The notes under the pieces are model-generated. The model ran no database searches, was not told the DNA's origin, and worked only from the letters and a program-made list of their open reading frames with translations. A DNA stretch of 20,514 nucleotides from Candidatus Methylomirabilota bacterium. Lineage in GTDB: Bacteria > Methylomirabilota > Methylomirabilia > Rokubacteriales > CSP1-6. Numbering within the stretch: position 1 is the stretch's first letter; every line of letters begins with the position of its first letter. This document shows, piece after piece, positions 15,287-20,514 of the stretch. Location: contig JBKPAK010000040.1 of the NCBI GenBank assembly GCA_046726415.1, forward strand, positions 1 to 20,514, given 5' to 3'. A program made the translations under genes and the position numbers.

Positions 15287-15601
15287 CAGCTGACCGGGAG
15301 GCGGTTTCCCGAACGTCGACCTCAAGAATCGACTCGACATCATCGCGAGGTGGGGGAACCGCGAGTGCTTACCGTGGAGGCAGCAGGTCGGCCACCCCCA
15401 CCCGGTCGTTGGGAAACGCGAGAGGAACGACGACCGCCGGTGGCGCGAGCGTCGTGACGGATCGGTATCGCCATCCATAGATGGCCAGGGAGAGGGAGTC
15501 AGAGAATACGTCACCGACCTTGCGACATGCAGTACTCAAGCGTAGCGAGCGATCGTGGCAAAGAGCGCCGGTCGCGCTCGCCCGGCCACGATAAAAGCGG
15601 G

Positions 15602-18600
15602 TCAGGGCGTGGTGGCGCCTCTCCCCACCCCGAGTCGGCGGGCGAGCGCCGCCGCTTGCTCGGCTCGCTTCGACAGGCCGAGGTCCCGGAACATGCCCAC
15701 AGCTTCGGCGAGAGTCGCCTGGGCTTGGCCGCGATCGCCAAGCGCGTGGGCCACCTCGGCCAGGTCGAGCCGGGTCCGGGCCGCCTCCAGCCTCGCCTCC
15801 ATTGCTGTGAAGGCGGCCAGCGCATCCTCGAGGTGTCGCCGGGCCTCCTCCATCGCGCCGCGGTGCCGGGCCAGCCGCCCCCGTGTCCGCTCGGCCCATG
15901 CGAGAGCCCAGCGAGCCCTGCTCTCGCGGCTCATGGTGAGCGCGCGGGCGGCCACCTCATCGGCTCGGGCCAGGTCGCCGATGGCCAGGCATGCGTCGCC
16001 GAGGAGGGCCAGGACGCGCGCCGCCGACTGATGCATCCCGAAACGGATGAGCTGCTCCGAGGCCTCCTCCAGCGGCGCTCGCGCCGCTGCGGCATCGCCG
16101 CCCTCGAGGTAGGCGTACCCGAGGGTTTGGGACGCGGCGGCTCCGGCCACCGGGTCGCGCGAGAGCTCGCTCGCCCGGCGGCAGGCCTCGATCGCCGCGT
16201 CTCCGTCCCCGCGAGCGGCCAGAGCCCAGCCTCTGGCCGAGGCCGCCATGCTCCGGAGCCGGGCGTCGTCCATGGCATTCCCTATGGCCTCGGCCTCGCC
16301 GGCGGCCCGCAGCGCGGGCTCGACCTCGCCGAGCGAAATGTGATTCATGCCCAGCACCCAGTGGCTCAGTCCCAGCCAGAGCTCCTCGCCGGTCCCGGCG
16401 AGGAGCGCGATGGACTGGGTGGCGTGCTCGACACCCTGGCGGGGCTCCCCCGCCCAGTAGCTCTTGAGCGCGAGCACGTAGCGGGCCTCGCCCGCGATCG
16501 CCCGGTCGCCCCCACGGTCGGCGGCCTCGGCCGCGCACTCGGCTGCCGCTCCCGCCTCATGCACGTGGCCGAGATAATTGTGGGTCAACGCGAGCCGGAA
16601 GAAGTAGGGGCCCGCCAGCGACGGGTCCCGAAGGCTCTCCACCCATTCCCGGAGCGGGAGCAGCAGCTCCAGGATCTCGCGGAAGCGGGCGAGAACCGAG
16701 AGCACCCGGGCCTTCTCGAGGACGAGTTGAAGCCGCCGGCGCTCGCGATCGGGGCCGGGGAGGCGCCCGGTCTGCCCGAACGCCTGATCGAGCACCCGTA
16801 TGGCCTCCTCGAACGCGTATCGCAGGCGTGCGACCGTCGCCAGCTCGGCCAGGTACGTGGCGGCCTTGCCGGGGACGCCCGCCTGGGCGTAATGCTCGGC
16901 GAGCTGGTCGTACACCTCCTCGAGACGCCCGGCGTGAGTGATCTCGAGCGCCTCTCCCACCGCCGTGTGAAGGGCGGCCCGGCGTGGCGCCAGGAGTCCC
17001 TCGTACACGACGCGCCGGATGCGGTCGTGGGCAAGCTCAAAGCGCTCGCCCACCGCCGTCACGAGCCGCCGGCTCACGAGTTGCTCCAGCGCCTCAGCGG
17101 CGTCCGCCGGGCTCAGCCCGGCGGCCCGCTGGAGCAGTGGGAAAGCGCACTCGCGGCCCACGACCGCCGCCACCGCGGCGATCTGACGGGCGCGGTCGCC
17201 GAGCCGGTCGAGGGGGGCGGTGATCACCTCTCGCACCCGCTTCGGCAGCGCCACCGCCTCCGATCGGGCCGAAGGGTCGGGCAGCGCGTGCACGCATTCG
17301 ACAACGACGAAGGGATTGCCCTCGCTGAGGTCCCAGACCTGCTCGGCGGTACGGGAGAGCCACGGCTCGTCACTGCCGGCGCGGACCAGCGCCCGGACGA
17401 GGGCGTCGGAATCGCTGCGGGAGAGGGGACTCAGCTCGAGCGACAGGAGAGACCGCTCCGGGGCCAGCTCTTCCACCAGCCGCCGGAGTACCGGCGCTCC
17501 GGCCAGCTCCTCCTCGCGCGCGGTCGCGGCCAGCAGGACGCCGCGCGATGTCGCCCGCCTGGCGAGGAAGGACAGGAGGCGCAGGCTCATCTCGTCGGCC
17601 CAGTGCAGATCCTCGAGGATCACGACCAGCGGCTGCCGCTCGGCCAGCCGGCCGACCAGATCGAGCACGGCCTCGAACAGCCGCGTCGAGTTGTCGGCGC
17701 TCACCGGACTCACGGGCGAGGCGTCGCTCAGCTCGGGAAACAACCGCGACAGCTCGGCGCGCGATCCGGGGCTCAGCCGGTCGACCACCTCCCCATCGGC
17801 GAGGGCCTGGCCCGCGCGGAGCGCATCGATCCAGGGTTGAAAGGGGAGCAGCTGCTCGGACTCGTACGCCCGGCCCACCACGGCTCGCCCGCCGCACGCC
17901 ACCGCCTCCGCCGCGAGCACCTCCATCAGCCGGCTCTTCCCGATGCCGGCCTCACCCATCACCAGGACCAGCTGGCCGCGGCCCGACCACGCCTCACCGA
18001 GGGCGCGCTCCAGACGAGCCAGCTCCGCGTGCCGGCCGACCAGCGGCCTGTCCGGGCTTTCCCGGTGGGCTCGCACACTGAGCCGGCGAGCCTGAGGCCT
18101 CGGCGGCGCCGACGGCGCCTGGCGGGGCGCCGCCGGCTGCTGCTGGAGGATCTGCTGGTACAGCTCGCGCGTCTCGGGCTCGGGATCCACGCCCAGCTCC
18201 TTGCGGAGCACGGCGACGCACACCTGATACTGCTTGAGCGCGGCGGTGCGGCGGCCCTGCCGCACGTAGAGACGCATCAGGGCCCGCTGCACGCCCTCCT
18301 GTAGCGGGTCGAGGCTCAGCAGCCTGAGGGCCGTGCGGATGGCTGGCTCGGCCGGTCCGGCCGCGGACTGCTTCGCCAGCAGCTTCCCCAGTGCCTCCTG
18401 CGCAAGCTCGCGCATGCGCTCGCGCTCGGCGAGCAGCCAGTCCTCGAAGGGACCGGCATTGACGGTGAAGCCCTCCAGCAGATCGCCTCGATACAGCGCC
18501 GTTGCGCGCTCGAGGCTCTCCGCCGTCCCCTGGGCCACCAGCCACTCGAAGCTGGTCGCGTCCACCTCGACCGCGCCCGGATCGAGCGCCACGGTGTCGC

Positions 18601-18865
18601 CCTCCATCCGCAGCACGCCTTTCTTGACGGGGGCGAGCGCCTTCCGGAGATCGAACAGCGTCTGCCGGAGGCTCTGGCGGGCCTGTCTATCGTCGACGTC
18701 GGGCCAGAGGAGGGCCGTGAGTTTGTCGCGCACCTGCGGCTCTCCCGGGTGCGCTCCGAGATAAGCCAAGAGGGCCTGGCCCTTTCTCGAGGACAGCGCG
18801 ATGGGCCGATCGGACGGAGCCCGCACCTTGAAGCTTCCGAGGAGGGTGAGGACCAGCGCTGCCTT
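15602..18865 (-). CDS. SARP/AfsR-type STAND regulator (wHTH-BTAD-AAA ATPase-TPR); start uncertain (AAG at 18865 or GTG at 18826)
   Basis: Uninterrupted 1074-aa frame with RKGQALLAYL, DPLQEGVQRALM, GEAGIGKS, LEDLHWAD, SEGNPF and TPR-like repeats. Similarity to the paralogue extends 13 codons above the GTG. Confidence 0.9.
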   Translation of the reverse strand, partial: KAALVLTLLGSFKVRAPSDRPIALSSRKGQALLAYLGAHPGEPQVRDKLTALLWPDVDDRQARQSLRQTLFDLRKALAPVKKGVLRMEGDTVALDPGAVEVDATSFEWLVAQGTAESLERATALYRGDLLEGFTVNAGPFEDWLLAERERMRELAQEALGKLLAKQSAAGPAEPAIRTALRLLSLDPLQEGVQRALMRLYVRQGRRTAALKQYQVCVAVLRKELGVDPEPETRELYQQILQQQPAAPRQAPSAPPRPQARRLSVRAHRESPDRPLVGRHAELARLERALGEAWSGRGQLVLVMGEAGIGKSRLMEVLAAEAVACGGRAVVGRAYESEQLLPFQPWIDALRAGQALADGEVVDRLSPGSRAELSRLFPELSDASPVSPVSADNSTRLFEAVLDLVGRLAERQPLVVILEDLHWADEMSLRLLSFLARRATSRGVLLAATAREEELAGAPVLRRLVEELAPERSLLSLELSPLSRSDSDALVRALVRAGSDEPWLSRTAEQVWDLSEGNPFVVVECVHALPDPSARSEAVALPKRVREVITAPLDRLGDRARQIAAVAAVVGRECAFPLLQRAAGLSPADAAEALEQLVSRRLVTAVGERFELAHDRIRRVVYEGLLAPRRAALHTAVGEALEITHAGRLEEVYDQLAEHYAQAGVPGKAATYLAELATVARLRYAFEEAIRVLDQAFGQTGRLPGPDRERRRLQLVLEKARVLSVLARFREILELLLPLREWVESLRDPSLAGPYFFRLALTHNYLGHVHEAGAAAECAAEAADRGGDRAIAGEARYVLALKSYWAGEPRQGVEHATQSIALLAGTGEELWLGLSHWVLGMNHISLGEVEPALRAAGEAEAIGNAMDDARLRSMAASARGWALAARGDGDAAIEACRRASELSRDPVAGAAASQTLGYAYLEGGDAAAARAPLEEASEQLIRFGMHQSAARVLALLGDACLAIGDLARADEVAARALTMSRESRARWALAWAERTRGRLARHRGAMEEARRHLEDALAAFTAMEARLEAARTRLDLAEVAHALGDRGQAQATLAEAVGMFRDLGLSKRAEQAAALARRLGVGRGATTP

Positions 18866-19019: not shown

Positions 19020-19223
19020 ATGGGGAAGATGACGAGCCCGCGCCGGTCAGTGCCAGGCGGGATGAGGACCTTCATCGTGCGCGTATCGCCCGACGAGTCG
19101 GGCGAGTTGCAGGGGATCGTCGAGCGGGTGGCCACCGGCCTCAAGCAGCGCTTCCACGGGGCGGCCGAGATCGGCCGGATCATCCGGGAGGTCGTGGTGG
19201 CTGAGAAGGAGAGGACGGGATGA
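19020..19223 (+). CDS. Small hypothetical protein (start 19020, 19029 or 19062)
   Basis: TFIVRVSPDESGELQGIVERVATGLKQRFHGAAEIGRIIREVV looks like a compact beta3-alpha domain; ATGA overlap with the next gene. Confidence 0.7.
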   Translation: MGKMTSPRRSVPGGMRTFIVRVSPDESGELQGIVERVATGLKQRFHGAAEIGRIIREVVVAEKERTG

Positions 19224-20452
19224 GGACCCCTGGCCTCTCGCCCAAGGAGGGCATCATGAGCATGCGCCTCGTCAGAGCGATCGCGATCATCGAACTCACG
19301 CTCCTGGGGTGGATCGCCGCGCCGGGCTGGGCCCAGACCGGCCTGGTCGAGCCGCGCGCGGGAACGTGGAAGACCCACGTCCTCGCCTCGGGGAGCGAGC
19401 TGCGGCTCCCGCCCCCGCCGGACGCCGCGGCCACCCAGGCGGAGATGGGCGAGCTGCGAGCCCTCGCCGGCCAGCGCACGCCGGCCGCCCTGGTCCAGAT
19501 CAACTACTGGGATGCCGGATCACCGGGCTACCGGTGGAACGAGATTGCCATGTCGCAGGGACTCCGGCGCATCGGCAAGATCGGGGCTCACGGCAACTAC
19601 CGGATGATGGCCCTCCTGAACGTCGCCATCTACGACGCCACCATCGCCGCATGGGAGTCGAAGTACGCCCACAACCGCCGTCGGCCGGGCGAGATCGATC
19701 CGACGCTCACCACCGCCCTGCCCAGCCCGCGCTCGCCGTCTTATCCCTCGGCGCATGCGGCGGCGGCGGGGGCGGCTTCCGTGGTGCTCGCCTACGTGAT
19801 GCCCGACGACGCGCAGCTCTTCGCGGCCAAGGCCGAAGAGGCGGCTCGATCGCGGGTGCTAGCCGGCGCCGAGTTCCCGAGCGACGTCAAGGTCGGCCTC
19901 GCCCTGGGGCGCGCGGTGGGTGAGCGCGCGGTTGCTCGCGCGCGGAACGACGGCTTCGACGCCTCCTGGACGGGAACCGTCCCGGCGGAGCCGGGCAAGT
20001 GGACGGGGACGAACCCGAACTTCCCGATGGCGGGGACGTGGAAGACGTGGATCGCCCGGTGGGACGGCAAGTCGAGCATTCCGGACCCGCCCGCCTGGAA
20101 CGGTCCCGAGATGGCCAAGGCGGTTGCCGAGATGAAGGCCTTCAAGCCCACGGGGCAGCCGAACGGGACCTTCTGGCCCGACGACCCCGCGGGCCGTCCC
20201 GCGCCCGACCAGGGTCCGAAGGCGACGGATCAGATCGCCTATCACTACGCGAAGCTGAACCACCTCCTCTGGGCACCGCAGCTCTCCCAGAAGATCTTCG
20301 AGTACCGGTGGGATCAGAACCCGCCGCGGGCCGCCCGCGCCTATGCCCTCACCAGCATCGCCTCCTACGACACCCTTATACTTCCGGCCGTCCTGGGAGG
20401 AGTAGCAGAGGAGAGAACACTCTCCTGCTGCCCCAGGCCGACGGGGTATTAG
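19220..20452 (+). pseudogene. Secreted two-domain PAP2 / vanadium-haloperoxidase-like protein, truncated early in domain 2
   Basis: Signal peptide ...GWA-Q. Domain 1 motifs KYAHNRRRP, PSYPSAH, SRVLAGAEFPSD. Domain 2 begins NPPRAARAYAL...SYD and is then replaced by unrelated sequence after ~20373-20380. Confidence 0.8.
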
Positions 20453-20514
20453 GGAGGGGCGGCCAAGCGTGACGGCCAAGGGCTTGCTGACCAGAGGACC
20501 TTACGACACGGAGC
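20374..20514. mobile_element. Candidate inserted element end (IS110-like non-coding left end, or small TIR-less insertion)
   Basis: Abrupt loss of protein similarity; CT followed by TATACT at the junction; ~80-nt hairpin; internal copy of flanking TACGACAC. No transposase in the window. Confidence 0.45.

Follow-up and report, generated by a model that had tools for sequence, protein, structure and literature searches.

Why does a PAP2-superfamily gene break off just before the end of its contig, and why does a word from its flank return inside the sequence that replaces it? Both questions are raised by the window analysed here, a stretch of 20,514 nt that makes up the whole of contig C40 in a metagenome-assembled genome (MAG) of a Candidatus Methylomirabilota bacterium (G000; 7.6 Mb, 352 contigs). 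The answer, which we regard as very probable, is that positions 20375–20514 are the first 140 nt, or left end (LE), of an insertion sequence of the IS110 group that used the PAP2 gene as its target. The type of element is already known, and this example of it is newly found.

The 8-mer TACGACAC stands at 20366–20373, is followed by CCT and then by TATACT (20377–20382), and occurs a second time at 20502–20509. The repeat and the junction are direct observations, and base composition gives an expected chance of about 0.0012 that the flank 8-mer recurs within the next ~133 positions. In the list of open reading frames (ORFs), the PAP2 frame extends past the joint into the element as far as 20452. 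PAP2 homology stops at the joint because the gene is interrupted by the insertion. The protein apparently comprises two tandem PAP2-like halves: residues 43–226 and 177–295 of the 372-residue translation of 19256–20371 each align to one paralogue on contig C133, and the insertion cuts the second half at its YD..(I/V)A.W motif. No remainder of the gene was recovered when the C-termini of paralogues from the same MAG were used as queries.

Sequence from outside the MAG supplies the uninterrupted gene. Logan contigs of four public soil runs (X1–X4) were aligned to 19900–20514 and compared by sequence, not by depth. The junction is uncovered in two runs, with the contigs of X2 ending at 20272 and those of X4 at 19994, and X4 otherwise aligns solely to a conserved LE block (about 20458–20502). 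The empty site is observed directly in the other two. Record 15 of X3 (841 nt) has no differing letter over 19997–20376, record 4 of X1 has none over 20311–20376, and after 20376 both read GGTGGCGTGCTGGGGGACGCGCTATCTCTA in place of the element. The site runs ...TACGACACCCT and directly on to GGTGGCG..., i.e. ...CCTACGACACC-CT-GGTGGCG..., with the longer right flank GGTGGCGTGC..., and it keeps the PAP2 frame open (...SYDTLVACWGTRYLY), with a sequence similar to that of the protein's first PAP2 half (IYDATIAAWESKYAH). A 30-nt query from this continuation is absent from the MAG at ≤3 mismatches.

Since the empty-site match holds through 20376, the CT at 20375–20376 is common to target and element. 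The C at 20374 is likewise present in the empty site, and divergence starts after 20376. An initial annotation of the window had placed the break in PAP2 after 20373; the junction is real, but the empty-site contigs move the point of divergence to 20376. At the left joint of the window the insertion thus shares the core with its target, in agreement with the IS110 group, whose elements have no inverted repeats and duplicate nothing beyond the core. The same runs hold the LE on other flanks: record 6 of X1 carries it with CACTACGCCA before 20374, and record 17 of X3 (386 nt) has an unlike flank before 20363 and extends 178 nt beyond 20514.

A comparison of 20374–20514 with its own genome, as had been suggested, brought out a second copy. 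All 141 nt reappear, at 100% identity, as the 3' terminus of C150, another contig of this MAG (15392–15532), and both copies are placed directly after TACGACAC; apart from the shared ...CTACGACAC, the upstream flanks of C40 and C150 are unrelated. Because 141-mers are common to many contig ends in this MAG, and C40 and C150 halt at the same base, the two contigs simply stop one k-mer into a repeat. The continuation past 20514 is in no other contig of the MAG. The C150 insertion site lies inside a DDE_Tnp_1_4 (IS1380-type) transposase gene (C150 14767–15391; 879–1499 of locus L013), a gene that also appears to be frameshifted. A paralogue of this target gene in C87 is truncated ahead of the site and yields no right flank. 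The element family often inserts into other mobile elements. In genome G181, the four compared copies (L058–L061) occupy paralogous repeated sequences.

Relatives of the element reveal what lies beyond the contig end in complete copies. At the DNA level, matches were obtained in 22 of the 183 genomes searched from the order (E ≤ 0.01) and in 11 of the 251 searched from the phylum (E ≤ 1e-5), G000 being counted in both; the phylum-wide search gave no relative closer than those of the order-wide search. The conserved block corresponds to ~20453–20502 of the window and has 79–93% identity. Two relatives, L014 and L016, were compared with Pfam for recombinase domains, and in both the block lies ~170 nt upstream of the Pfam-matched start of a same-strand ORF with DEDD_Tnp_IS110 (E 1.3e-31 and 1.4e-33, respectively) and Transposase_20, the pair of domains to be expected downstream of an IS110 left end with a CT core, as the initial annotation had read it. 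A protein-based scan of genome contigs yielded 44 related recombinase loci, mostly from Candidatus Rokubacteria/Rokuibacteriota/Methylomirabilota MAGs, with a few in bins labelled as other phyla. The weak DNA hits L026 and L027 (E > 1e-4) have no LE motif and look like chance matches, and the weak hits L025 and L029–L034 were left out of the reading. Exact-pattern scans for the LE and guide of the window returned nothing, either with 71 nt in metagenome contigs or with 24 nt in genome and metagenome contigs, in searches from which records of the genome itself were possibly excluded.

The ends of the element were set by comparing genomes that hold several copies. In the relatives the LE starts with CT followed by TATACT, and the right end (RE) is made up of just the 19 nt, the core CT among them, that follow the stop codon (...TGA-CATGAACCAGAGAAAGT-CT, with the tip ...AAAGT-CT). 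The complete order is core CT, TATACT, 5' hairpin, GGCC hairpin, target loop, donor loop, a recombinase of ~405 aa, and RE. The -10 box that had been proposed at the left end is present in the relatives as well: 19 of 19 distinct elements have TATACT straight after the core, and joining RE to LE would create the string TTGACA-17 nt-TATACT in 14 of these 19. In the window the predicted split promoter is represented by its -10 box, the RE being expected beyond the contig end.

Downstream of the -10 box, the RNA of the relatives consists of a variable 5' region (often a hairpin), the GGCC hairpin, CTTGCTGACC-AGAGGACC and a variable 9-mer. There follow NN-AGCCCCCGGAGGCT, a variable stretch ending in AG, ACTGTCCC-GGTCGGCAAG and, as the last part, GAACGGCG...GGTTC-AAGAGAAAGT-hairpin-GGTATAAGG...GCCGTTC. 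The target-binding loop is made up of a closing stem, a 9-nt left target guide, an inner hairpin and a 7-nt right target guide. The donor-binding loop holds a left donor guide, AGAGAAAGT, that equals the RE tip, and a right donor guide, GTATAAG, that is the complement of CT plus TATAC. In these elements the copy of the flank carried by the guide sits in a conserved RNA loop 107–199 nt into the LE, with ~1.4 kb more of the element after it. The window copy would continue as its relatives do, and by analogy with them the whole element may measure ~1.6–1.7 kb. A sub-group with a longer LE (~80 nt extra; L022, L024, L038, L040, L057 and L066 plus duplicate loci) has its guide 190–199 nt from the LE tip, versus 107–132 nt elsewhere (83 nt in L069), and the extra piece holds a conserved GATATCAC motif.

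Covariation of the guides with the flanks is observed directly in the relatives. With one site for each distinct left guide, 19 elements were compared, the window being entered with its out-of-register PAP2 site. The 9-nt left guide is identical to the left flank at 123 of 171 positions (shuffled mean 68.3), and none of 100,000 shuffles reaches that value. Reverse-complemented, the second variable stretch reads CT and then the 5 nt that open the right flank. Over 16 elements, this right guide complements the right flank in 77 of 80 positions (shuffled mean 29.9; again 0 of 100,000 shuffles). Resolved by position in 17 guide pairs, the left guide matches in 10–16 of 17 at positions 2–9 and in 4 at position 1, and the right flank matches in 14–17 of 17 at positions 1–5 and in 3 at position 6. 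Spurious second anchors ~70 nt upstream of the true anchor in L020, L021, L039, L042 and L098 were dropped from these counts, as were L037/L051 and L092 (no LE start found), loci cut before the LE or RE, and same-site duplicates listed under several locus ids.

On this basis, the proposal that the internal copy is a target guide matching the flank is upheld: 20501–20509 of the window is the left target guide, and the 8-mer at 20502–20509 is its informative part. The initial annotation had noted as a difficulty that the internal copy is followed by GG, not by the CCT of the junction. This is true, and it follows from the way the family is built, because the core is not part of its left guides (0 of 17 elements have T two bases past the guide); it is part of the right guides. 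One element shows a natural exchange of the core. In L096, from a MAG labelled Alphaproteobacteria, the core is CA, not CT, and the RE tip (AGTCA), the right target guide (...CTG) and the right donor guide (GGTATATGG) have all changed together.

The RNA helices are also observed in the alignment of 26 distinct relatives with the partial row of the window, which adds only the 5' strand of the target-loop stem. They comprise 38 pairs, with 98.2% of cells paired, and compensatory changes occur in 10 of the 38, versus 2.3 in column shuffles and 1–5 in slid controls. Helix 2, the target-loop closing stem, is the most conserved part of the LE (15 pairs, 5 of them with compensatory changes; 98.7% of cells paired). 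The alignment supports a conserved secondary structure with two internal loops.

Within the visible 140 nt (Table 1), every feature that had been listed for the window is present, and the minimum-energy fold of 20366–20514 reproduces the stems (z -1.49; 15 of 200 shuffles fold as well). The hairpin at 20389–20440 has a predicted energy of -29.1 kcal/mol (z -1.87; 10 of 200 shuffles as good), and a similar CAGGAGAG...CUCUCCUG hairpin is present in some relatives but not in all. Of the long hairpin first drawn over ~20373–20454, the outermost pairing, CCCTTATAC/GTATTAGGG, is probably not RNA structure, because it includes the core and the -10 box and lies upstream of the expected transcription start. 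Between the 5' hairpin and the GGCC hairpin, the window carries GGTATTAGG, which is complementary to the LE tip; its position upstream of the target loop is unexpected, and relatives carry an unrelated purine-rich sequence there. This word may be a product of chance or an extra donor-like guide.

Table 1. Features at the right-hand end of the window, from the interrupted gene to the contig end.
Feature	Coordinates	Strand	Basis or remark
5' part of PAP2-superfamily gene, cut by the insertion	19220..20376	+	ORF list; Pfam PAP2 E 7.2e-10; empty-site contigs
Left target	20366..20374	+	8-mer TACGACAC (20366–20373) equals guide; 20374 adds one more target base, C, before the core
Core dinucleotide CT, crossover point, common to target and element	20375..20376	+	empty-site match through 20376
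-10 box TATACT; promoter predicted to be completed by RE in the circle	20377..20382	+	directly after core in 19/19 distinct relatives
5' stem-loop of non-coding RNA (CCTGGG/CCCAGG, GTAGCA/TGCTGC, GGAGAG/CTCTCC)	20389..20440	+	predicted fold
GGTATTAGG, 8/9 identical to the right donor guide of the family, GGTATAAGG	20445..20453	+	sequence comparison
Small conserved hairpin GGCC-N9-GGCC	20461..20477	+	helix 1; compensatory changes in 3/3 pairs
5' strand of target-loop closing stem (CTTGCTGACC, then AGAGGACC)	20483..20500	+	helix 2; 3' partner beyond contig end
Left target guide TTACGACAC	20501..20509	+	positions 2–9 track the flank
GGAGC, first bases of target-loop inner hairpin	20510..20514	+	aligned with NNAGCCCCCGGAGGCT of relatives

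How such an element would move can be outlined from the work on IS621. The element would excise as a circle, in which the RE-LE joint would form the TTGACA-17 nt-TATACT promoter, and RNA made from this joint promoter would be bound by the recombinase. The donor loop would grip the element's own joint, and strand exchange would take place at CT.

Several observations weigh against this assignment. The contig ends 5 nt past the guide, and the right target guide, donor loop, recombinase and RE of this copy, which would lie beyond, are found in neither the window nor the MAG. A tblastn search of the MAG with the recombinase of a relative returned only a 55-aa relic in C136, and blastn with the LE-plus-recombinase stretches of eight relatives (each from 130 nt upstream to 1,450 nt downstream of the conserved LE anchor) returned only C40, C150 and relics. 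Because the recombinase is absent from these searches, we infer, and do not see, an intact one in this copy. The recombinase of the relatives is only distantly similar to that of IS621 (phmmer against 8wt6_A, E 8e-6, 28.4 bits). The fold energy of the RNA part of the window, which is G+C-rich, is not significantly better than that of shuffles, and no Rfam family matched this RNA: at E ≤ 1 the search gave nothing except two chance microRNA matches well below their gathering scores, in a database for which a bridge-RNA model is not established. A group II intron or other curated structured RNA was considered and found without any supporting Rfam match. Elements from kin genomes lack full independence, and several of the guides are nearly the same (for example CTGCTGCGC, TTGCTGCGC and CTTCTGCGC), so that the shuffle test is somewhat inflated. 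Finally, guide and PAP2 site are offset by 1 nt: 2 of 9 positions match in register 0, as against 8 of 9 when the register is -1.

The missing recombinase is also the starting point of the rival explanation that survives best, improbable though we judge it to be. The window copy might be a non-autonomous or decayed derivative, an LE (perhaps with an RE) without a working recombinase that was moved in trans or persists as a relic. The MAG does hold relics of the family. At 15408–15597 on the minus strand of C136 there is a solo RE relic, in which the final 55 codons of an IS110-type recombinase are joined to CCTGAACCAGAGAAAGTCT, and at ~31240–31290 of C254 there is a ~50-nt LE stub of a second family member, with the flank ...ACGTGGCGCGC joined to CTTATACT and then unrelated sequence. 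Against decay stand two copies that are identical over all 141 visible nt and that break the assembly, as a young multi-copy repeat does, and an insertion that is polymorphic, its empty site occurring at 100% flank identity in X1 and X3. Moreover, record 17 of X3 extends 178 nt beyond 20514, and contigs of repeats commonly drop out of bins. The identical copies and the polymorphic site argue for a young, complete element. Two details of the relics may be added: the C136 relic adjoins a membrane-transporter-like ORF, and the target word of the C254 stub is the same as that of elements with the guide GTGGCGCGC in genomes G038 and G181.

The initial annotation had offered as its alternative a 128-bp element without terminal inverted repeats, and more generally a small (~128–136 bp) insertion flanked by an 8-bp target duplication of TACGACAC would account for the direct repeat at 20366–20373 and 20502–20509. 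It is refuted: PAP2 does not resume after 20509, where GGAGC stands in place of the continuation (C)CTGGTGGCG... of the empty site, the frame resumes instead with GGTGGCG..., which is absent from the window and the MAG, and in the relatives the second copy lies inside a conserved RNA loop, with ~1.4 kb of element and a different right flank to follow. We likewise give practically no credit to an assembly artefact in which PAP2 and an unrelated repeat were fused at 20374, since the PAP2 site has only ~14 nt in common with other LE sites, too short to mislead a k-mer assembler, and the joint falls exactly at CT after a guide-matching 8-mer, by the rule of the family and as chance would not place it, even though the contig ends within a repeat and the four public runs show the empty site and other LE joints, but in none of them the occupied PAP2-LE joint.

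With the IS110-group assignment retained, the register of the PAP2 site calls for separate comment. In register, the guide TTACGACAC agrees with the C150 flank CTACGACAC in 8 of 9 positions, and the match abuts the core CT. At the PAP2 site it reaches 8 of 9 only after a 1-nt shift, with an extra C between the 8-nt match and the core that the empty-site contigs assign to the target. The site in record 17 of X3 appears to share this one-base spacing. Of the 19 distinct elements, 15 keep the register, three are shifted to -1 (the window, L028 and L096) and one to +1 (L065). The simple pairing model does not predict the shift at PAP2. Conceivably, although we consider it unlikely, one bridge RNA uses targets in two registers, with a one-base bulge beside the crossover tolerated and the core unpaired on the left guides. 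If this were so, and the shift reflected chemistry and not later mutation, the rule of target recognition would differ from that of IS621. A possible alternative is an off-target event driven mainly by the right guide; "half-match" insertions of IS621 are reported in a preprint from 2026 (10.64898/2026.08.31.748434). In the MAG, another 10 TACGACAC-CT sites and another six TACGACAC-C-CT sites are unoccupied, so the left half-site alone is evidently insufficient.

The IS621 element provides the closest published frame of comparison. As described by Durrant et al. 2024 (PMC11208160), its RNA is encoded in the LE and consists of a 5' stem-loop, a target-binding loop and then a donor-binding loop, a sigma-70 promoter is rebuilt upon excision, all four guides include the core, and the IS110 group is characterized by a long LE and a short RE. 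The relatives of the window element resemble this group in their DEDD_Tnp_IS110 plus Transposase_20 recombinase, in a long LE and very short RE, in a CT core at both joints with duplication of the core only, in a -10 box at the tip of the LE with the -35 box placed in the RE, which together would give a promoter only in the circle, and in an LE-encoded RNA that proceeds from the 5' hairpin to the target loop and the donor loop. They differ from IS621, besides the distant protein similarity, in that their left guides leave out the core, in a guide-core register that is one base off in 4 of 19 natural elements, and in their hosts, which are high-G+C soil Rokubacteria/Methylomirabilota MAGs.

In the IS1111 group, as delimited in the same paper (PMC11208160), the LE is short and a long RE encodes the guide RNA. 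This guide RNA is known as 'seekRNA'. The present elements share with the group the recombinase family and an RNA-guided choice of site, but their RNA lies upstream of the recombinase and their RE, even with the core CT, spans no more than 19 nt past the stop codon. Membership of the IS1111 group is ruled out, as the relatives are without a long RE carrying an RNA downstream of the recombinase. Elements of the IS200/IS605 family insert beside a short specific motif and have subterminal hairpins; like the element described here, they are without inverted repeats or target duplication, have a left flank that is site-specific and carry a hairpin close to the end. In contrast to them, the gene of the relatives encodes a DEDD/Tnp recombinase and not a Y1 HUH transposase or TnpB, and the target is ~15 bp long and read by two RNA guides flanking the core.

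Elsewhere in the window, a minus-strand ORF of 1074 aa (15602–18826) is overlapped by a 925-aa antisense open frame, the region spanning 15527–18826. Long antisense open frames are typical of high-G+C DNA.

Taken as the left end of an IS110-group element, the end of the window explains why the contig stops here, why PAP2 looks truncated and why its flank recurs inside the insert. The existence of both empty and occupied sites suggests recent movement of the element. The 19 natural guide variants, with 17 guide pairs for which both flanks are available, constitute a small natural "reprogramming" data set. Both the register shifts and the absence of the core from the left guides depart modestly from the rules published for IS621, and both could be tested at the bench. 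More broadly, the family marks out a branch of bridge-RNA recombinases, found in soil bacteria of high G+C content, whose protein sequences are far removed from that of IS621.

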